NCBI GenBank assembly: GCA_024763455.1
Contig: JANTFL010000001.1
Location: forward strand, 26,678-90,677
Length of the DNA stretch: 64,000 nt
Direction: 5' to 3'
DNA from: Sediminispirochaeta sp.
GTDB lineage: Bacteria > Spirochaetota > Spirochaetia > B11-G9
Under the pieces are notes generated by a model that was not told the origin of the DNA, ran no database searches, and saw only the letters and a list, made by a program, of their open reading frames with translations. A program made the position numbers and the translations under genes. Positions 2,019 through 63,000 of this stretch are shown in pieces (position 1 is the stretch's first letter; every line of letters starts with the position of its first letter).

Positions 2019-2108
2019 ACTATACAAAATTCTGATCCAATCTCTTATGAATTATATAATTACTTACAATGTAAATAAATAGATATTTAATTGGTAAAAT
2101 GATGTTTT

Positions 2109-2125
2109 TGGCATGAAACTTGCAT
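2109..2125 (+). promoter_or_regulatory. candidate sigma54 (RpoN) -24/-12 promoter
   Basis: TGGCAT-gaaac-TTGCAT has one mismatch to TGGCAC-N5-TTGCA, with GG and GC exactly 10 nt apart. It ends 20 nt before the ATG at 2146 of the sigma factor gene. Confidence 0.5.
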
Positions 2126-2145
2126 GTTATTATGCAGGAGCTGTT

Positions 2146-2982
2146 ATGAAAAGAAATATAGAGAACGAAGAAAGTGCACTGAAAACATATTTTAACCAGA
2201 TTCAGAATACGCCCCTGCTAAGTTTTGAAGAAGAGCTTGAGCTTTCACGTAAGATCCAGAAGGGTGATGAGACTGCCAGGCAGCAGCTTGTCAAGGCTAA
2301 TTTAAGACTTGTTGTCAAGATTGCAAAAGCCTATACAACGGCAGATTACAGTTTTCTTGATATCATTCAGGAAGGTAATCTGGGGCTTATAAAAGCCGCA
2401 TCCCGGTATGATTATAAAAAAAATGTGCGGTTTTCAACCTATGCAGCATGGTGGATAAAACAATCAATAGTCCGGGCTTTATCAAAAAAGAAACGACCTA
2501 TACGCCTTCCGCACCGAAAAGAAGAGCTTTTAAAAAGGATTCAAAGAACATATTACGTTCTGAATCAAGAGCTTTCTAGAAAACCATCAGTTGAAGAGAT
2601 TGCAGAAGAGTTACAAGAAAAACCGGAGGATGTTGCGGCCCTCTTAAACTCCTCGACCCCCCTTTATTCTTTGGACAGTACCTTAAATGAGGATTCTTCA
2701 ACTCTCATGGATATGTACGAAGATACTACCTTCGATCCGGATGAGATGCTTATGAAGAAATGTTTTAAGGAAGAAACCATGCATTTCCTTGAACATCTCC
2801 TGGAAAAAGAGAAACAGATACTTATGTACCGGTTTTCCTTTTACGGAGGTAAGAAGTACACTCTTAAAGTAATTGGAGAGGAGATGGGCATCTCACCGGA
2901 AACAGTCAGGCAGATTGAGATGCGGGCTATCAGGAAGCTGAAAGACCATGCCAATGAGCTTAAAGATTTCATTTACAACTGA
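2146..2982 (+). CDS. RNA polymerase sigma factor, sigma70 family (group-2, RpoS/RpoD-like)
   Basis: Regions 2 to 4 are recognisable: ANLRLVVKIAKAY, DIIQEGNLGLIKAASRYD, FSTYAAWWIKQSIVRAL, and the C-terminal HTH LKVIGEEMGISPETVRQIEMRAIRKLK. I moved the start from the track ATG at 2113 to the ATG at 2146, which has AGGAG 5 nt upstream. Confidence 0.85.
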   Translation: MKRNIENEESALKTYFNQIQNTPLLSFEEELELSRKIQKGDETARQQLVKANLRLVVKIAKAYTTADYSFLDIIQEGNLGLIKAASRYDYKKNVRFSTYAAWWIKQSIVRALSKKKRPIRLPHRKEELLKRIQRTYYVLNQELSRKPSVEEIAEELQEKPEDVAALLNSSTPLYSLDSTLNEDSSTLMDMYEDTTFDPDEMLMKKCFKEETMHFLEHLLEKEKQILMYRFSFYGGKKYTLKVIGEEMGISPETVRQIEMRAIRKLKDHANELKDFIYN

Positions 2983-3026
2983 TAGAGTGTTGACCAAGAG
3001 TATAAATAATACTATTTTCTACTTCA

Positions 3027-3935
3027 GTGAAGAAAGGTAACGGAAAACTACTACTTGTATATATTCTTCTTGGGGTAATCGCAGCTGCCCTCTTGCTGAC
3101 CCTTGTTATACTACCGCCGGGGGCAATACAGGGAACGGCAGAAAGGGAAACAGAAAAAAGAGAGATAGAGAACGCGGAAGTAAAACCTCCGGAGCATCTG
3201 CCTGAGAGTCAGCCCGGGAAAGAGATCGTTAAAAAACCGCCGGCAAAAGGGCATCTTATCTTTGTAATCGATGATGTCGGAAACAATCTTTTTCAGTTGA
3301 AACCCTTTCTTGATCTCCCTTTTAAAATAACTTTTGCTATTTTACCCGGGCTGCCCTATACTGAAGAAGCTGCTGCGATGATCCATAAGGCAGGGAAGGA
3401 ATATATTCTTCACCAGCCTATGGATGCTGTCAATGGAGGTGATACAGGACCCGGAGCCATTCATACAGGGATGTCATTAGACGAGGTAAGGCATAGTGTT
3501 ACCGTAAATCTTGCACCCCTCCCTTATGCTCAGGGAATTAACAATCACATGGGTTCGGCCGGGACGGCAGACAAGGATTTAATGGTTTCGTTGTTTACAG
3601 TTTTAAAGGAAAAGGGTATGTTCTTTCTTGACAGCCGAACAACATCAAATAGTGTCGGGGCAGAGGTTGCCGCCCAGATAGGGCTTCCGTTTGCTGAAAG
3701 GAGTGTTTTTCTGGACAACAATAAAGAGAAAAAAGCGATAGAAGAATCCATTGAGAAGGGTGTTGATATTTCTGAAAAGAAAGGACATGCGGTTATGATA
3801 GGTCATATCTGGTCTGCAGAACTTGCAGAGGTTCTTCTTGAAATGTATCCAGCACTACTGGAGGATAATTACACTTTGAATAATCTTACTGAGCTTTTTA
3901 TGGGATATAAGGACGATGAAGATACTTGGTATTGA
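3027..3935 (+). CDS. divergent polysaccharide deacetylase family protein (YibQ-like), N-terminal membrane anchor
   Basis: 302 aa with a GTG start. It has an N-terminal TM helix followed by LIFVIDDVGNN..FAILPGLPYTEEAA..HQPMD..NNHMGS, the pattern of the YibQ/DUF610 family. Confidence 0.7.
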   Translation: MKKGNGKLLLVYILLGVIAAALLLTLVILPPGAIQGTAERETEKREIENAEVKPPEHLPESQPGKEIVKKPPAKGHLIFVIDDVGNNLFQLKPFLDLPFKITFAILPGLPYTEEAAAMIHKAGKEYILHQPMDAVNGGDTGPGAIHTGMSLDEVRHSVTVNLAPLPYAQGINNHMGSAGTADKDLMVSLFTVLKEKGMFFLDSRTTSNSVGAEVAAQIGLPFAERSVFLDNNKEKKAIEESIEKGVDISEKKGHAVMIGHIWSAELAEVLLEMYPALLEDNYTLNNLTELFMGYKDDEDTWY

Positions 3936-4929
3936 AAGCTCTTGTGATGAGTGTTCCGCCTCTGTTGTAGAAGATGGAAAAAAAATTTTAAGCAATGTAA
4001 TTGCTACTCAGATAGACTTTCACCGGGAGTACAATGGTGTCGTTCCTGAAATAGCATCGCGGCTGCATACTGAATGGATACTGTCTGTCGTGCGAGAAGC
4101 ACTTGAGAAAAGCCATTTGGCCCTTGGGGATATAGACGGTATTGCAGTAACTGCCAGACCGGGATTAGTCGGTTCACTTCTTGTCGGGGTTAGTTTCGCA
4201 AAAGGGATTGCTCTCTCTCTGGACAAACCATTAATTGGCGTTGACCATATAAGGGCTCATCTATACGCTCCTCATCTGGAGTATGATATTGAATATCCCT
4301 ATCTGGGGCTGCTTGTGTCAGGGGGACATACCGTGATAAGCAGAGTTGATGGGTTTGATACTATAGCTGTAATGGGGACCACCATCGACGATGCCTGTGG
4401 AGAAGCTTTCGATAAGGTTGCAAAGTTTTATAAGCTTGGGTATCCCGGAGGGGTGGCAATTGATAATCTATCCTCCAGGGGTGATCCGGAGGCCTTCGCC
4501 TTCCCGGACCCTTCGTTGCACAAAGGTGATCACCGGTATGACGTATCATATTCAGGTTTAAAAACAGCTGTAATCAATCAACTGGATCAATTCTGGAACG
4601 GCAAAAGTGAAAAGAGTAATGAGAACATTGCTGCGAGTTTTCAGAAAGCTGCAGTCGGCATGCTTATAAAAAGAGTTAAACGGGCTGTAGAAGACACGGG
4701 GATTACAACTGTTGTTGCCGGAGGCGGAGTTGTTGCCAATTCGTTACTACGGTCTGAGCTTAAAAATATCAAAGACGTCAAGGTGATTGTTCCTTCAATC
4801 AGCTTGTGTACCGATAACGGAGCCATGATTGCCGGGCTTGGTTATCATTACCTGAGTACAGGGATTACATCAGACCTTTCGTTAAACGCTTCTGCCAGGG
4901 TTCAGGCCTTCAGAAAGAAATATCCTTAA
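3916..4929 (+). CDS. tsaD: tRNA N6-adenosine threonylcarbamoyltransferase TsaD
   Basis: 337 aa. MKILGIESSCDECSASVV, the HIRAHLYAP metal-site region and GGGVVANSLLR are characteristic of Kae1/TsaD. Confidence 0.9.
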   Translation: MKILGIESSCDECSASVVEDGKKILSNVIATQIDFHREYNGVVPEIASRLHTEWILSVVREALEKSHLALGDIDGIAVTARPGLVGSLLVGVSFAKGIALSLDKPLIGVDHIRAHLYAPHLEYDIEYPYLGLLVSGGHTVISRVDGFDTIAVMGTTIDDACGEAFDKVAKFYKLGYPGGVAIDNLSSRGDPEAFAFPDPSLHKGDHRYDVSYSGLKTAVINQLDQFWNGKSEKSNENIAASFQKAAVGMLIKRVKRAVEDTGITTVVAGGGVVANSLLRSELKNIKDVKVIVPSISLCTDNGAMIAGLGYHYLSTGITSDLSLNASARVQAFRKKYP

Positions 4930-5188: not shown

Positions 5189-6892
5189 ATGAACAATTCC
5201 GTATTTGACAAACTAATTTCCGGTCTCACAGTGGAAGAGCGGATGAAAATGGCGGAGAAGATGAAAATCTCTTCCGTAATAACCAGTGAACCGCTTGTTG
5301 TAGAAGACGAAACAGCAGCTTTAGATTATTCAACCTATGTTCATAATCTGTCTATTATTGAAAGGCTGATAATTTTTCTAAAATCCCTCTTTTCCTCAAA
5401 CGAGTATGAAAAAGTTCTGGGTGATCATTTAATCAGTAAACTTGGTAAGAATGTGGAACGGAAAAGCCCCGGCATCATGCATTACCATGAAAGAGAGTTT
5501 ACCCAGGGGTTTTATGTCGAAATAGTAAATTTCAGAGATTCACTTTTAGATCTGAAGGAATATATCTGTACTACCCTTGAAATAAACAAGATGGATTTTC
5601 TTGCATTCCTTGGTGGATGGTTTCTTCCGCAAATTCATCAGCGGTTTATCAGTGAAACTGATCCCTGGGCGCTCAGTAAGGAAAATGATGAGCTTCTAAA
5701 TTTCGAGATCCGCAGGGAACTGGAATTCCGTCTGGAAGATATTCTGAGCTCTGTTTCAGAAGATGAGCGGAGGATGATGTACCGTTACTCCCGTTCTCTT
5801 CATATACTCAATACGCTCTTAAAGTTCGACTTTAATCATATCCTGGATGCTTTTGGACCTTCCGGGACAAAACAGGGAAAGGTCTGCAGATTTTCAGATA
5901 TCAGGAACAGTTTGAAAGAACTGGACAATATACTGTACAGCTTCAGGTTCCCACCGGAGCAGGATCTATTCAGGGCAGTATACTATTACTACAGGATTAA
6001 AGAAAACCAGGATCCTGAGGATGTTGATAAAGTGAGAGAGTTTCTCGAAACAGCTGAACAGACCATGAAAAGCATACGGTTATTCAACAAAAAGATACCT
6101 ATGGACACTATTCTTAAAATTGTTTACAGAAACATCAGTTATAATCCCACTGAAATAAGCGGGGGAGAAGACTGGTTTGCTCTGTATAAAAAGTTTTGGT
6201 ATAAAAAATTTGAAGTCTCCATGCTTACATTTACCTTGGAGAATAAAAAGAAAGAGCTGCTGGCCGAAAACAAAGAACGACTGAAGGTAGATAAGATTCA
6301 GTACCTTACCTATTACCGAAACAGGATCTGGGGGAATGACCTTTCGATACGGTATGAAGAATCAACTGCAATTCTTTATACTTTTTTGTTAACCATGTAC
6401 ACTCGTGAGATCCTTCCAACTTTGAAACTTATTCTTGAGGATGGCAAGTTTTATAAGAAACAGAACCAGCAGGAATTCACTTCATCATACACATCAATTA
6501 TACAAACTCTGGAAAGATTAAAGTTTCTTGACTCCTCACTTGCACCGGGAGGCGAGTATGCTCTGGAGATTGAGTCAATCAAGGAGGGTGAAGAGGGTGA
6601 TCTGGAGAAGATCGACAGAATACGGAAATTGTTTCTGAGAATAGATGAAAAGGTGGAATCGATAATAATGGACTTTGTCTCATCCTTAAATCTTATGAGC
6701 AGACTCCTTAAAGGGATAACTCATGGAGATGTGGGCGGACCCTACGATACCCTTTCAAACCTCGGGTATATAGGCAAAGGTAAAAATAATGATCTACTGT
6801 CCCTTCTGATTCAGATCTGCTACACCCTGGACGGGTTCCTTGAAAATTTTACTGCCTTGTACGATGTCGAGAAGAGCAGTGCTGCAGAATAG
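5189..6892 (+). CDS. hypothetical protein, paralogue of the 52619-54367 product
   Basis: 567 aa long ORF. It shares collinear motifs with the 582 aa protein at 52619: VFDKLISGLTVEER vs VFHDLSKGLTQNER, FNKKIPMDTILKIVYRN vs FSDKIPLSDLIRYFKKN, and LDSSLAPGGE vs FDDSLSPDSE. I recognise no catalytic motif. Confidence 0.6.
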   Translation: MNNSVFDKLISGLTVEERMKMAEKMKISSVITSEPLVVEDETAALDYSTYVHNLSIIERLIIFLKSLFSSNEYEKVLGDHLISKLGKNVERKSPGIMHYHEREFTQGFYVEIVNFRDSLLDLKEYICTTLEINKMDFLAFLGGWFLPQIHQRFISETDPWALSKENDELLNFEIRRELEFRLEDILSSVSEDERRMMYRYSRSLHILNTLLKFDFNHILDAFGPSGTKQGKVCRFSDIRNSLKELDNILYSFRFPPEQDLFRAVYYYYRIKENQDPEDVDKVREFLETAEQTMKSIRLFNKKIPMDTILKIVYRNISYNPTEISGGEDWFALYKKFWYKKFEVSMLTFTLENKKKELLAENKERLKVDKIQYLTYYRNRIWGNDLSIRYEESTAILYTFLLTMYTREILPTLKLILEDGKFYKKQNQQEFTSSYTSIIQTLERLKFLDSSLAPGGEYALEIESIKEGEEGDLEKIDRIRKLFLRIDEKVESIIMDFVSSLNLMSRLLKGITHGDVGGPYDTLSNLGYIGKGKNNDLLSLLIQICYTLDGFLENFTALYDVEKSSAAE

Positions 6893-7613: not shown

Positions 7614-9374
7614 ATGGAAGCTTTAAAAAATATTTGGAAAGACAGGATAAAAAAGGCTCTTATTGATTCAGCAGAAAAGTACGGGCTTGATGCCGGATCT
7701 GTTGATGGTATCCCCCTCATTCTTGAGACACCACCGAAAGCGGAGCTTGGCGATATAGCCTTTCCTCTTTTCCCCTTTGCAAGGGTATTTAAGCGAAATC
7801 CTGCCCAGATTGCTGCAGAAGTGGCTGAGATTTTAAACAGAGATTCTTCGTTCGGGTCTGCCGAAGCGGCGGGACCCTATATAAATATTAAACTCGATCT
7901 CTCAGGGCAGATTGAGAAAACCATTCTTGCAGTGAACAGTGAAGGGAATGACTACGGGAGAACCTCTCTTTACAAAGACGAAAAAATAATGGTTGAGTTT
8001 TCCTGTCCCAACACGAACAAACCTCTCCATTTGGGGCATCTGAGAAATGACTCCATCGGCGAGAGTGTTTCCAGAATTTTGGCAATGAACAGTGCTGATG
8101 TCAGGAAAGTTAATCTGATTAACGACCGGGGTATACACATCTGTAAATCAATGCTGGCTTATAAAAAATTCGGAGGAGATACTACTCCTGAAAGCGAAGG
8201 GATAAAAAGTGATCACTTTGTGGGAAAGTACTATGTCAAATACAACGAGTGGTCAAAGGAGTATCCCGGAGCTGAGGAGGAGGCACGAGCAATGCTCAGG
8301 GCGTGGGAAGCAGGCGACCCGGAGGTTACGGCATTGTGGAAAAAGATGAACAACTGGACAATAAGCGGTATTCAGGAAACCTACCGCAAAACCGGAATCA
8401 GTTTTGATACCTTCTACTATGAAAGTGAGACGTATAAAGCCGGGAAAGAAGAAATTTTAACTGGTCTGGATAAAGGTGTATTCTATGCTGAAGAGGACGG
8501 TTCAGTGTGGGCAGATCTTTCAGAGATAGATCTCGATAAGAAGGTCCTCTTGAGGAGCGACGGTACCTCACTGTATCTTACACAGGATATTGGAACTGCT
8601 ATTGCACGCCATAAAGACTGGCCCTTTGAAAGGTTACTATATGTTGTCGGGTCTGAACAGCAGTATCACTTCAAAGTGCTCTTTTACATTCTCAAAAAAC
8701 TGGGGTTTAAATGGGCTGAAAAGCTCTACCATCTCTCCTACGGTATGGTTAACCTTCCCGAGGGTAAGATGAAATCACGGGAAGGAACGGTTGTAGATGC
8801 AGACGATCTGTTTCAGGAACTGAAAAGGATTGCCTTCGAAGAGATCGAGTCAAAGGATAGAATCAGCGAAGTTGGAGATGTTGAGAAGACAACAGATGCC
8901 GTTGCCCTTGCTGCCCTCAATTACTATCTGCTACAGGTTTCACCGGGCAAGGATATGATATTTAATCCCAAGGATTCAATATCCTTTAATGGAAATACTG
9001 GTCCGTATCTGCAGTACATGGGAGCCAGGATTTCAAGTATGCTCAGAAAATTTGAAAAAAAAGAGAATCAGTATGCCGGAACAGCCCCGGATTTCAGTTC
9101 CCTGAATGAGGAATCTGAAAGGGAGCTTGTAAAACTTCTTTCCGCTTTCCCCGCAGTTGTGAAGGAAGCGGCAAAAGAGCTGAATCCGGCTGTTGTGGCA
9201 GGTTATTTATACAATCTTACAAAACTTTTTAGCAGGTTTTATCATGATGTGCCTGTTTTGAATGATGAGAACAAACAGCGTGTTTTGGCAAGAGTTGAGC
9301 TTGTAAAAGCTATTCGGCAGGTTCTCAAAAACGGTTTTTTCCTGATTGGGGTTCCCTTTCTGGACAGGATGTAA
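7614..9374 (+). CDS. argS: arginine--tRNA ligase
   Basis: 586 aa. It has the class I HLGHLRN (HIGH-type) motif, a DALR-type anticodon-binding C-terminus and ends in M, as is typical of ArgS. Confidence 0.95.
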   Translation: MEALKNIWKDRIKKALIDSAEKYGLDAGSVDGIPLILETPPKAELGDIAFPLFPFARVFKRNPAQIAAEVAEILNRDSSFGSAEAAGPYINIKLDLSGQIEKTILAVNSEGNDYGRTSLYKDEKIMVEFSCPNTNKPLHLGHLRNDSIGESVSRILAMNSADVRKVNLINDRGIHICKSMLAYKKFGGDTTPESEGIKSDHFVGKYYVKYNEWSKEYPGAEEEARAMLRAWEAGDPEVTALWKKMNNWTISGIQETYRKTGISFDTFYYESETYKAGKEEILTGLDKGVFYAEEDGSVWADLSEIDLDKKVLLRSDGTSLYLTQDIGTAIARHKDWPFERLLYVVGSEQQYHFKVLFYILKKLGFKWAEKLYHLSYGMVNLPEGKMKSREGTVVDADDLFQELKRIAFEEIESKDRISEVGDVEKTTDAVALAALNYYLLQVSPGKDMIFNPKDSISFNGNTGPYLQYMGARISSMLRKFEKKENQYAGTAPDFSSLNEESERELVKLLSAFPAVVKEAAKELNPAVVAGYLYNLTKLFSRFYHDVPVLNDENKQRVLARVELVKAIRQVLKNGFFLIGVPFLDRM

Positions 9375-42067: not shown

Positions 42068-43746
42068 GATGCAATTACCTTCGCTACTGTTTCAATTGTC
42101 CAGTCAAGAGTTTTTCTAAGAATCTCCATCCCTCCTGTATCAGGGGAACACACTCTCCTGATTGCAGCTGCTGCGGGGAAAAGAGTGATGCAAACCTCTT
42201 TTTGTCTTGAGGTAAGAGAGTGCATATATCCGGATAAAGACTCTGCCGGTACTGGAAGAGATTTAAGATCCTGGTAGTACGAGTAAAGAAAATGATTCCA
42301 TGAGAGATCAGCTGGCCCTGCGGAAAATATACTTGATATTCCGTATGATTCGGGTATTTTTTGATATGCAGGGATTTCTATCATTTCACCTTCCCCTTCA
42401 GGAATGATTACTTCGGATTTGAGACTGCTGATCAGTTTTTCAAGTCTTTTTTTATAACTAATCATTGGTTTCGTCACATACCGTGAGCTTCTCGTATCAG
42501 TTACATGGTTAGTCTCATCGTTGTGAAAAATAAAATCAATAAAAAAATCTTCAAGAGGTTGTGTTCTGTGTGTCAGAGCGCTGAAATATGGATATAAATA
42601 GGTACCTCTGGCATAACTCTTGCCGTAGGGATAAGAGAAGTCAACCCCGAAAAGCAAAATTTTTTTTGCCCCCAGAGAGTAGGCAAGGGATACTGCGGCA
42701 TGGCTGACATTTCCGCCTGAAGTATCAATAAAAGGGAATTCCCTCCATCTTTTTTTTACATACAATGAGAACGGGTGACCGCTGGTAAAAAAAAGAACAT
42801 TGTCTGTAAGCCGGGTTATGAGCTGAGGCGATGCAAGATCAAGAACAAGAGGGATATCATTGGGGATTCCAGTCATAAAGTGATGAAACGTAATATGCTG
42901 GCAGTCGATAGATAATATCAGGTCAGGTTTAATCCCATTTTGTATAAGAGCGGGATAAGCGGTGTCTGTTGTAATCAGAAATCCATCTTTTGAATGCTCC
43001 TTTAATTGTGGCAGCTGCTTTTCTAACGACGGACCGGCTCCGGCTATGAGTGCTTTATTAACAGGAGAAATAACAGTAGTAGTTTTTTCTGCCGCCTTCA
43101 GGTTAAGAAGTGTGTTCACAAACCACCTTTTGCCGAAGTAAGATTGTACTGAAAAATCCTCTGAAAGCGGTGTTATTACATCATTGATTGTTTTTGTAAC
43201 ACTGGAAAAAAATTCGTTTTCCATTTCAACTCTTGCTCTGAGTTTAAGAATATCAAGGTTTCCTGATATGGCAGGGATATAGTTTTCAAGAATATGACTG
43301 GATATATCCTCTGGTGAGGGATCAATAAGTATGCGTACTCTTTTATCAAGAAAAAGTGAGGTGAGATTAAAATGAGTGAGTATTTTCTTGAAAAAGCCAT
43401 AATCCTTGTCAATTACAAGAATCTCAGATATTTGTTTATCTTCAGTAAAGGGTAGTATATGATAACCGGCACCAAAACCGAGGATAATTATGTAACCACT
43501 TGCTTTAAACGTAGAATAAAACCTCTTCCCTTCTTTCTCCGGATCAAAGGTTGAATGAAGAGGGACTTCTCTATCGTTTTTTTTCAAAAACGGAACCCGC
43601 ATTCCTGTTCTGCTTTCTTTTATCAGGTACTGATCAGATTCATCAACATAGCTTATCTTGGAGGCAAGACTGGAATTCGTCGCCGAAAGTGCAAGAAGAT
43701 TGGATTCAAGAAACGACTGATTACTCTGTTTCTGCATTATGTTCAA
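42064..43746 (-). CDS. Maf-like DUF115/MptE-like domain protein, putative (flagellin) glycosyltransferase
   Basis: 560 aa. The core ALIAGAGPSLEKQLPQLKEH..ITTDTAYPALIQNGIKPDLILSIDCQ is present, with a Maf-type N-terminus (..PLHSTFDPEKEGKRF..ILGFGAGYH). It is the last gene of the 48395-42064 operon. Confidence 0.75.
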   Translation of the reverse strand: MNIMQKQSNQSFLESNLLALSATNSSLASKISYVDESDQYLIKESRTGMRVPFLKKNDREVPLHSTFDPEKEGKRFYSTFKASGYIIILGFGAGYHILPFTEDKQISEILVIDKDYGFFKKILTHFNLTSLFLDKRVRILIDPSPEDISSHILENYIPAISGNLDILKLRARVEMENEFFSSVTKTINDVITPLSEDFSVQSYFGKRWFVNTLLNLKAAEKTTTVISPVNKALIAGAGPSLEKQLPQLKEHSKDGFLITTDTAYPALIQNGIKPDLILSIDCQHITFHHFMTGIPNDIPLVLDLASPQLITRLTDNVLFFTSGHPFSLYVKKRWREFPFIDTSGGNVSHAAVSLAYSLGAKKILLFGVDFSYPYGKSYARGTYLYPYFSALTHRTQPLEDFFIDFIFHNDETNHVTDTRSSRYVTKPMISYKKRLEKLISSLKSEVIIPEGEGEMIEIPAYQKIPESYGISSIFSAGPADLSWNHFLYSYYQDLKSLPVPAESLSGYMHSLTSRQKEVCITLFPAAAAIRRVCSPDTGGMEILRKTLDWTIETVAKVIAS

Positions 43747-60073: not shown

Positions 60074-63000
60074 ATGAAAAAATATAAATTTATCAGTATT
60101 GCAGTAGTTTTTTTGGGTTTAACCACACTAGGCTCGTTCGGGCAGGAAAATGCCCGGGTAAAGGAATTTTATTCGCCGCTTTTCCTTTCTGGAACATGGA
60201 ATGAGACTGAACAGGCTGCTCCGCAGTCAGATGCCGTCAATCCTGCATCGTCTGCTCTTTACCAACGGACGACCCTTGATCTAAGCTATATGGGAATTGT
60301 CGGTGATGAAGGTACGCTTACGGGACAGAACGGATTCGCTTTTAATCTGGGGAATACCATTCCGACGAGAGCCGGGGTTTTTTCCTGGTCCGCACATATG
60401 CTGAAGTCAGATTATCTGAACTTTAATGTACCTTTTTATTTTGCAGTTTCGGGGTCTTTTTCAAAGGATCTCTATCCGAATCTTCTTGCTGGTCTAGGGG
60501 TGAAGGCTGCATATTCTTCCTTGCCCGGGTACAGTGCTGCAGTTGATCTGGGGATAATCTATCTTTCCGGAAATTTCTGGAAATTCACCGATACTGCCGT
60601 TGGCCTCACCCTTGCTGATTTGGGTTACAGCACAATTACAAAGGGATATCAACAGCCCTTTACTCCCTCTGCAGGAGTAAGCGGAACCCTGTTCAAGACT
60701 GATATTTTTTCCATGAAGCTCAACAGTAATATTAGTTCACCCGGTTTAAGTTCTGTTTTTATGAGCCTTGGGGGAAGTGTTGACTTTAAAAACATTATCT
60801 CTCTTACCTTTGGCAGCAGAATGGATTTAAGGTCCCTTCTAAACGGCAACAGCGCGGGGTTGATCCCTTCTGTAGGGCTTAATTTCAGATTTAATCCATC
60901 ACTAGGAGAAAACTCAACGTTTCTCGGGCTATCCGAAAAGGGCTGGAACAAGGGGCAGGTTGAGCTGCAATCATCTTTTGCACCCATTGCAGACGGGATT
61001 TGGTCATACGGCGCAGGGGCTAACGTGCAACTTGGAGTTTTAGATAAAGATCCACCGGAAATAGAGATCGATATTTCCGGTTTTGAATCGCAATCCATGA
61101 ACGTTCCGGCAAAGGGGCATAGTGAAAAGTACTCTTCCCACAGTAAACAAAGTAAAAAAATTGTTTATGTGGATTCAGGTAAAGACTCGATAAAAAAGAA
61201 TGCTCTGAAAAGTGACGGAGCAGTGCTTACCTATCTTTCTCCAAACAATGATGGAATTAAAGATGATTTGAAACTACCCATTAAAATAAAGGATTCAAGG
61301 TACATAAAAGGGTACTCTCTCGTCGTTACTGATTCTGAAGGAAATTTAGTCAGAGAGATAAAAAATAAAGAGAAAAGATCCGAAAATCAGGGATTTATGG
61401 GCTTTTTTGACCGTCTTACTGCAGTGAAGAGCGGTATAGATGTGCCGGAGGAACTGCGGTGGGATGGGTACAACGATTCGGGGAAGGTTGTTCCGGACGG
61501 AACCTACTATTTCCATGTCGAAGCCTGGGATGATAATGGTAACGTGAGTAAAACAAAAGAGTATGCGGTCGTTATCGATACTACTCCGCCGGAGGTAACC
61601 ATTAAGGAACCGCCGGAGGAAGAAAAAATATTCTCCCCGAATAACGACGGCAGCAAGGACACAGTATCGTTTGAACAGAATGGTTCCGTTGAGGATACAT
61701 GGACCGGAACAATACTGGATTCAAATGGAACAGTTGTAAAAACTTTTACCTGGTTAAATTCCGAACCGGAAAAAGTTGTCTGGAATGGTCTTGATAATAA
61801 CGGGAATATGGCTCCCGACGGAGTATATTCGTATGCAGTTACTAGTACTGACAGAGCCGGGAACAGCGTAGAGAAGGATTTTCAGAATATTATAAAGAAC
61901 ACAGAAGAGACACCCATTGCACTTAAAATTGATAAACAATTTTTCAGCCCAAACAACGACAAGATCATGGACACAATAATTCTTACTCCGGAAGTAAGTG
62001 TTAAAACAGGTCTGAGGAGCTGGAGCCTTTCTGTTTTTAATGCAAAGGGTGACGTTGAAAAGATCTTTTCAGGAACAGACAGTATACCTGAGAATCTGAT
62101 ATACGATGGCAGAGATAATTCCGGAATTATTCTTAAGGAAGGTACGTATTACGCCCTGCTGGACGTACAGTATGTAAACGGAAATAATCCTTCTGCGAAA
62201 TCTCCTGAATTTACAGTGGATGTTACTCCTCCCTCTGCAACAGTGAGGGTAAGTACAAAAGTTTTTTCACCCAATGGGGATGGACAGAAAGATACGGTAA
62301 AATTCTTTCAGGAAACATCCTTGGAAGAGGTGTGGACCGCTTCCATTTATTCCGCAGAGGGTGAGGTGGAGTATGACTACAACTGGATAGGTACTGCCGA
62401 ACCAGAGATTGAATGGAATGGGATCAGTAAAGACGGCAGACTTGGTTCTGACGGTGTTTATACCTACCAGCTTAGTGCTATTGACAGGGCTGGAAATCTG
62501 GGTAAATCAAATATCGTTTCGTTTAAGCTTGATACAGAAAAGACTGCAGTCATTCTTACAACCGAATACAATGTTTTTTCTCCTAACAACGATGGATCGA
62601 AGGATGAGATTAAGATAATACCTCAGTTGTCAGTAAAAGAGGGTATAGCGGCCTATACAATGAATATCTATGACAGCAGTAACACATCGGTGAGGGTATA
62701 TAGGGGCACAAAAAGTATTCCCGAGTATTTCCTCTGGGATGGGTCGGATGGTAAAGGAGTGAGAGTCCCTGATGGAGTCTACTATGCAAAACTGGATATG
62801 GAATATGACAAGGGGGATAAACCATCGGCTGTTTCGAGAAACATTGAGGTCGATACTGCATATCCTCAGATTACCCTGGCAACAGAGTATGTTTTGTTCT
62901 CGCCTGATGGTGACGGGAAAAAAGATTCGGTTATAATCAGCCAGCGATCTGAGGGAAGCGAGCAGTGGAGAGGAGAGATTCTAGATGCTGAAGGGAATAC

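Follow-up and report, generated by a model that had tools for sequence, protein, structure and literature searches.

Is the sigma factor gene that follows a run of flagellar genes in a Sediminispirochaeta sp. transcribed from a sigma-54 (RpoN) promoter, as rpoS is in Borrelia burgdorferi? The gene lies in a stretch of 64,000 nucleotides (nt) of contig JANTFL010000001.1 (positions 26,678 to 90,677, assembly GCA_024763455.1), which we call the window and whose own numbering is used throughout. A first-pass annotation made from the letters of the window had pointed to a near-consensus -24/-12 element, TGGCATgaaacTTGCAT, at 2109-2125 on the plus strand, directly upstream of the sigma gene (2146-2982, plus strand, 278 amino acids (aa)). 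Its coordinates for the motif, for an AGGAG, for two possible ATG codons and for a TAAAAT were all borne out by a check of the sequence. From its position and its conservation in relatives, we believe with good confidence that 2109-2125 would act as a functional sigma-54 promoter of the sigma gene.

The element is made up of TGGCAT (2109-2114), the spacer gaaac (2115-2119) and TTGCAT (2120-2125), with exactly 10 nt between its GG doublet (2110-2111) and its GC doublet (2122-2123), and it has one mismatch to TGGCAC-N5-TTGCW. The ATG at 2146-2148 begins 20 nt past the motif end on the same strand, with no gene in between, and a Shine-Dalgarno AGGAG (2136-2140, plus strand) stands 5 nt before it; the GGAG is nearly invariant in an unguided MAFFT alignment of related loci (alignment A1, described below). 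The open reading frame track had placed the start at an ATG inside the motif, at 2113. We regard that start as an artefact because nearly all homologues are 278-283 aa long and start at the position of ATG 2146. The TAAAAT at 2095-2100, which had been put forward as a sigma-70 element should the 2113 start be real, was rejected as well: the stretch is unconserved, the 2113 start is false, and a consensus scan found no sigma-70 promoter at 2019-2145.

The significance of the motif comes from its position and conservation, not from the sequence match alone. We compared 22 loci with an orthologous sigma gene, the window included, of which 19 formed a first set and three were further Treponema loci (L168-L170). 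They come from uncultured Spirochaetaceae (69-89% protein identity), Alkalispirochaeta, Spirochaeta sp. UBA5339 and metagenome-assembled genomes of Treponema (~49-50%), and one contig encodes a protein identical to that of Marispirochaeta aestuarii. Contig scans with generic peptide words gave 11 spirochaete loci and exact-protein look-up supplied the further ones; the scans were otherwise dominated by ~40%-identical sigma factors of Verrucomicrobiota, Omnitrophota and Planctomycetota, which served as negative controls. A loose pattern, [TCA]GG[CT]A[CT]-N5-NTGC[ATC], had a single match before the gene in all 19 loci of the first set (300 nt searched) and in the three extra Treponema loci (260 nt), compared with 14 matches elsewhere in 484 kb of these sequences, counting both strands. 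The first-pass annotation had made conservation in relatives a test of its reading, and the result was favourable: the element is kept in 22 of 22 orthologous loci at protein identities of 49-89%, that is, down to ~49%.

The pattern of conservation within the element is that of a sigma-54 promoter. The GG and GC doublets are invariant, both in a motif-anchored profile (19/19 loci) and in alignment A1 (22/22), which recovers the same conserved island. In the motif-anchored profile, T-G-G-C-A, the G at +7 and T-G-C carry 1.5-2.9 bits of information, the flanking t and the Y and W positions take values in between, and neither the 3 central nt of the spacer nor the 11 nt preceding the motif reach 0.3 bits. 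The family profile, tTGGCAYGg-N3-tTGCWT, is the sigma-54 consensus (YTGGCACGrNNNTTGCW). This profile, with its unconserved spacer and flanks, and the retention of the element at all 22 loci uphold the original identification of a sigma-54 promoter. The Treponema loci have another gene upstream, transcribed divergently, and the promoter is still present; because it is kept despite the changed neighbour, it goes with the sigma gene rather than with the flagellar operon.

Two further conserved elements lie upstream. The first is a dyad, TGTCTAttaaacTATACA (2009-2026), a candidate enhancer (upstream activator site) that shares bases with the stop codon of flgJ. The family consensus is (T/C)GTAT-N8-ATAC(A/G), with an A-rich spacer and the core TGTAT-N8-ATACA. 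From dyad centre to GG the distance is 92.5 bp in the window subclade, 102.5 bp in 8 other loci and 94.5-109.5 bp in the rest, and 92.5 and 102.5 bp differ by exactly one helical turn. Ten dyads scoring at least 15 fall in the expected 25-nt zone, versus 2 in the remaining 241 kb, and the dyad is kept in Treponema loci that lack flgJ upstream. What is conserved in the arms is their sequence. A mismatch found in the window subclade (TGTCTA versus TATACA) sits on the opposite arm in L001, and a variant that switches arms would fit the site of a dimeric protein better than a hairpin. Conserved and phased in this way, the dyad would speak for an enhancer in these lineages. Alkalispirochaeta and Treponema loci have a second, weaker copy, TGTAT-N8/10-ATACA, three helical turns (33 bp) farther upstream than the main one (L006 2789-2806, L008 2773-2790, L009 ~2766-2785), an arrangement reminiscent of NtrC-type promoters with their tandem activator sites. 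Elsewhere in the window a strict GTAT-N8-ATAC occurs just once, at 62643, and was discarded as a further site; it reads as coding and has no A-rich spacer.

The second element is a 20-bp box, ACTTACAATGTAAATAAATA, at 2062-2081 (consensus cCTTAtaaTgTAAgtAAaTTA), which is partly dyad-symmetric (CTTA-N5-TAAG). Scored with a position weight matrix (PWM), it exceeds 14 in 14 of the 19 loci of the first set, where it precedes the T of TGGCA by 45-48 nt, in most of them by 47. Another 3 of the 19 match weakly at the same offset, 2 have no match, and the background is 6 PWM hits of at least 10 in 240 kb. The box forms an island in alignment A1 and is also found in L168-L170. Spacing in this region appears to be under constraint, since the unconserved spacers keep their length across ~50% protein divergence. 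On inspection the box fitted neither a Per/Fur box (Fur/PerR) nor the IHF consensus WATCAANNNNTTR, and we could not match it to the BosR repeat of Borrelia either. The window's copy contains TAAATAAAT at 2072-2080, which is not conserved as such in relatives.

A dyad ~100 bp upstream, an intermediate site and a -24/-12 core are also the parts of classical enhancer-dependent sigma-54 promoters such as glnAp2 with NtrC or nifH with NifA and IHF. At the latter the intermediate site is usually bent by IHF, and NifA sites read TGT-N10-ACA. The window's dyad, which reads TGT-N12-ACA, is similar in this respect. Its sequence is not known to match any activator site, however, and the box does not match the IHF consensus. 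The target differs too, being a sigma factor gene and not a metabolic or flagellar operon.

Transcription from a sigma-54 promoter begins ~12 nt after the C of the GC doublet. The predicted start is therefore at 2135-2137 (plus strand), 12-14 nt past the GC doublet, and the leader would be ~9-11 nt long and would begin with the Shine-Dalgarno sequence. The first-pass annotation had listed the short leader as a caveat, and the short predicted leader is a real and conserved property of the locus: the C of GC and the ATG are 22 nt apart in the window, and in 13 loci this gap is 21-23 nt. Predicted Treponema leaders are longer than the window's. An inverted repeat, TTGCATG-ttat-TATGCAG (2120-2137, plus strand), begins in the -12 element and reaches just into the Shine-Dalgarno sequence. 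The hairpin predicted from it has an energy of -6.0 kcal/mol and a z of -1.9, the mean z for 19 loci being -1.27, and the GCA before the GGAG is itself conserved across loci. Only a longer transcript could fold in this way, as the 5' arm of the hairpin would lie outside a transcript begun at the sigma-54 start.

What kind of sigma factor is encoded? The protein has Pfam regions 1.2, 2, 3 and 4 and lacks region 1.1. It scores ~230 bits against both the NCBIfam rpoS and RpoD models, under every curated cut-off (TIGR02394 rpoS_proteo, 234.0 bits versus a cut-off of 378.7; NF004207, 229.7 versus 394), and SigA and RpoS chains are equally near among the closest solved structures by PDB sequence match. 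Since it is equally near SigA and RpoS and below all model cut-offs, we class it from these scores as a generic group-2 sigma factor and not as an equivalog of proteobacterial RpoS (sigma-S, sigma-38). It shares with proteobacterial RpoS the group-2 sigma-70 family architecture without region 1.1 and a similar length, and the Escherichia coli and Pseudomonas RpoS structures are among its best PDB sequence matches; it differs in falling far under the TIGR02394 cut-off and in standing just as near the SigA/RpoD models. Proteobacterial rpoS is not known to be transcribed from a sigma-54 promoter. Thousands of spirochaete homologues exist, and a homology search seeded with the protein of a Treponema metagenome-assembled genome returned termite-cluster Treponema only. 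Treponema denticola has a sigma-70 family gene, TDE0937, proposed as a general stress regulator, whose expression rises 2.8-fold with heat, 21.8-fold with oxygen and 14-fold with osmotic downshift (PMC2965109). TDE0937 may be an orthologue of the window's sigma gene.

Gene order ties the locus to Borrelia. As the first-pass annotation had noted, the sigma gene directly follows flgF (28-876), flgG (894-1688) and a 105-aa rod-binding gene, here called flgJ (1701-2018), all on the plus strand; profile searches assigned FlgF, FlgG and the FlgJ N-terminal domain. In Marispirochaeta-like loci the order is flgF-flgG-flgA-flgI-flgJ-sigma-PF04748-tsaD. The window subclade has flgF-flgG-flgJ with no flgA-flgI between (876-2018, versus 7778-9534 in L162, 7722-9561 in L164 and 6913-8743 in L165); flgA-flgI has been lost from this position there, whereas Marispirochaeta-like relatives and Borrelia keep it. 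In B. burgdorferi the order is flgI-flgJ-rpoS, and a -24/-12 promoter lies 62 bp before the rpoS ATG (bb0771; Burtnick et al. 2007, PMC1976401). The gene order from bb0767 to bb0774 is confirmed. We take bb0769 to be tsaD/gcp. Because of its synteny with flgI-flgJ-rpoS, the window's sigma gene appears to be a positional orthologue of Borrelia rpoS, an orthology drawn from synteny and promoter.

The two promoters are also close in sequence. That of B. burgdorferi, which we pieced together from primer sequences and figure legends, reads TGGCACAGTTTTTGCATG, next to TGGCATGAAACTTGCATG in the window, and its primer-extension product ends 14 bp past the GC doublet and is lost in an rpoN mutant (PMC1976401). 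In both organisms the promoter stands between flgJ and a group-2 sigma gene, so that one alternative sigma factor would control another. The differences lie around this core. Promoter and ATG are ~62 bp apart in Borrelia, with a leader of ~48 nt, versus 20 nt and a predicted 9-11 nt in the window. In Borrelia, direct repeats for BosR, TAAATTAAAT, abut the -24 element; no such repeat adjoins it in the loci compared here, where positions -11 to -1 before TGGCA are unconserved. The Borrelia sequence from -46 to -25, likewise assembled from primers, bears no resemblance to the 20-bp box. Rrp2 is reported to act in Borrelia independently of an enhancer, without binding upstream DNA, whereas the window has a phased and conserved dyad.

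We looked for the trans-acting factors with six-frame motif scans (GAFTGA, Walker A, ESELFGH, RpoN box) and with tblastn, using NtrC central-domain and RpoN C-terminal segments as queries. At the level of the class, rpoN was present in 15 of 15 Spirochaetia genomes of a 2025 survey, including Sediminispirochaeta, Oceanispirochaeta, Salinispira, Treponema primitia and Leadbettera (PMC12316311, supplement), and spirochetes average 1-2 sigma-54 activators (Francke et al. 2011, PMC3162934). In the same survey COG0533 (TsaD) was enriched in the predicted sigma-54 regulon of Spirochaetia, and sigma genes of COG0568 were associated with sigma-54 promoters (PMC12316311). The TsaD and sigma signal of that survey evidently reflects this same operon, seen at COG level and without interpretation as a conserved RpoN-RpoS cascade.

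Several points count against a sigma-54 promoter here, or against the arrangement we propose around it. The 64-kb window and the flanks of L001-L160, which together were the search space in place of the whole genome, yielded neither rpoN nor a gene for an enhancer-binding protein, with no GAFTGA or Walker A signature and no NtrC-like tblastn hit, so that rpoN and an activator are assumed for this genome from the class-level literature. The motif alone is not above chance within the window, and its sixth position is T, not C, as it is in half of the orthologues. A leader of 9-11 nt, with the Shine-Dalgarno sequence at its very 5' end, would be short for efficient initiation when set against the ~48 nt of Borrelia. 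Binding of a protein to dyad or box is a candidate reading drawn from sequence, and the Borrelia activator is reported to need no enhancer.

How do other explanations fare? That the element is a functionless chance match in AT-rich intergenic DNA looks reasonable within the window, where about one match per 64 kb is expected: matches to TGGCAC-N5-TTGCW with at most one mismatch numbered 2 versus 1.05 expected, and 30 of 100 shuffles gave at least 2. The other such match, at 8591, and a looser one at 42609 both lie inside coding sequence and were rejected as promoters, and no second sigma-54 promoter was found in the window. Chance is effectively refuted, and its probability close to nil, once relatives are included, for the element recurs in 22 of 22 loci at the same position relative to the gene while neighbouring bases are free to vary. 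Could TGGCAYG-N4-TTGCW instead be the operator of another DNA-binding protein, or part of a sigma-70 type promoter? The failure to see an rpoN or activator gene in the window would agree with this, as would the tendency of the -12 to +3 region toward an operator-like palindrome. The 13 conserved positions, however, match the sigma-54 consensus exactly (GG and GC 10 nt apart, G after TGGCAY, T before TGC), the orthologous Borrelia site is RpoN-dependent by experiment, and rpoN is universal in the sampled Spirochaetia, so we think an operator very improbable. No more credible is the idea that these signals act in RNA, with the three islands of conservation belonging to a structured leader or a small RNA and not being DNA signals. 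It would account for the inverted repeats in dyad and box and for the hairpin tendency between -12 and Shine-Dalgarno sequence, but nothing in Rfam matched 1850-2250, and the stems amount to 5 A-U-rich pairs, which is too weak. The dyad arms, moreover, are conserved by sequence (TGTAT/ATACA) and not by compensatory change, with the mismatch switching arm in L001, and A1 offers no conserved partner with which the invariant GG and GC could pair.

A more serious possibility, although one we rather doubt, is dual control, in which the sigma-54 promoter exists, yet a large part or the majority of the transcription comes from flgF-flgG-flgJ read-through or from a sigma-70 promoter with its -10 at 2064-2070 (TTACAAT). 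A scan of the locus found no terminator-like site between flgJ and the sigma gene, and none after the sigma gene. The first half of the box is TATAAT or a near match in many loci, and the hairpin of -12 and Shine-Dalgarno sequence is possible only in longer transcripts. Borrelia offers a likeness in a long sigma-70 rpoS transcript starting upstream; putative upstream rpoS promoters have been described there, and the small RNA DsrA has been proposed to control translation of rpoS mRNA. Yet A1 shows nothing like a conserved -35 element before the box, the scan of 2019-2145 returned no sigma-70 consensus promoter, an independent promoter would have no need of a rigid 47-nt spacing to the -24 element, and Treponema has no co-directional upstream operon. 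Dual control would in any case complement the sigma-54 promoter and not replace it.

We therefore keep the sigma-54 promoter as our interpretation of 2109-2125, and the following sequence of events may be proposed. RpoN holoenzyme would bind the GG at 2110-2111 and the GC at 2122-2123 as a closed complex, which an AAA+ enhancer-binding protein, presumably encoded elsewhere in the genome, would remodel with ATP. The activator would probably dock at the dyad, TGTAT-N8-ATACA (2009-2026), ~93-103 bp upstream. The box at 2062-2081 occupies the place that architectural (IHF-like) proteins or co-regulators take at classical sigma-54 promoters and might serve a similar role. Transcription would start near 2135-2137, giving the short ~9-11 nt leader that begins with the Shine-Dalgarno sequence, and the transcript would cover the 278-aa sigma gene and possibly the PF04748 gene and tsaD.

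The genes that might share this transcript follow on the plus strand. A divergent polysaccharide deacetylase (PF04748) is encoded at 3027-3935 and tsaD at 3916-4929, both assigned from Pfam and neighbour tables, and co-transcription with the sigma gene is possible for each. A sigma-70-like TTGACC-17-TATTTT at 2990-3018, in the 44 nt that separate the sigma and PF04748 genes, could allow expression of tsaD, a usually essential gene, independently of sigma-54. Further on, at 5189-6892, a 567-aa DUF5312 protein is encoded, a neighbour kept in several Spirochaetaceae loci (L161, L163, L165-L167). We also observed a recurrent link with t6A-tRNA modification: in Spirochaetaceae tsaD is the second gene after the sigma gene, and in Treponema a Sua5/YciO/YrdC (TsaC-like) gene lies divergently upstream of it (L009 1609-2271, L168 8627-9292, L169 9089-9754, L170 4587-5255).

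A comparable element turned up outside the spirochaetes. In loci of the Opitutales (Verrucomicrobiota; L101, L134, L034, L046, L050, L062, L061, L031 and L047), an intergenic CGGCATCC-N3-ATATGCA(A/G)GG with GG-N10-GC spacing stands ~55-65 nt upstream of the ATG of a ~40%-identical sigma homologue, ~230-300 nt before the start of the tblastn match, with GGGAATTTCC and GGCACAGAACCGCGTATT ahead of it. The element could serve a sigma gene of another phylum as a sigma-54 promoter, and its GG-N10-GC hints at sigma-54 control of group-2 sigma factors beyond spirochaetes. L059 has AG for GG, which argues against a sigma-54 reading of this element.

The first-pass annotation had supposed that a cascade from sigma-54 to an alternative sigma factor might be widespread in spirochaetes, and the presence of the element in free-living and termite-gut relatives, at 22 of 22 loci, agrees with that view. 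Because the sigma gene appears to be a positional orthologue of Borrelia rpoS, the locus may represent the free-living-spirochaete version of the RpoN-to-RpoS cascade, and the comparison suggests that this cascade predates Borrelia. Leptospira has no RpoS, and for that reason we would place the origin of the cascade in the lineage of Spirochaetaceae, Treponemataceae and Borreliaceae and not at the base of the phylum. A fuller scenario, to which we give somewhat less than even weight, would have the cascade ancestral to these three families in the form of an enhancer-dependent three-part switch of dyad, phased box and -24/-12 element. Enhancer-independent, BosR-assisted activation in Borrelia would then be a derived simplification, and the Spirochaetaceae transcript would be nearly leaderless. 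The Borrelia literature has called the Rrp2-RpoN-RpoS pathway a novel regulatory network (PMC2940757), and our search of a literature library found no paper reporting conservation of this RpoN-RpoS promoter in other spirochaetes. The circuit is of a known kind, and its candidate enhancer, phased box and minimal leader set it apart from the Borrelia paradigm.

In the Lyme disease spirochaete, Rrp2-RpoN-RpoS is the master switch for transmission from tick to mammal. If our interpretation is true, that cascade would be an inherited general-purpose circuit, present in marine, alkaline-lake and termite-gut spirochaetes, and not an invention of the pathogen. The two phased upstream elements would provide a candidate enhancer and a candidate co-regulator site that can be put to the test, a matter not yet settled in Borrelia, where Rrp2 is reported to bind no specific site. 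Marispirochaeta, Sediminispirochaeta, Treponema primitia and Leadbettera would offer cultivable and non-pathogenic models in which to study the circuit.

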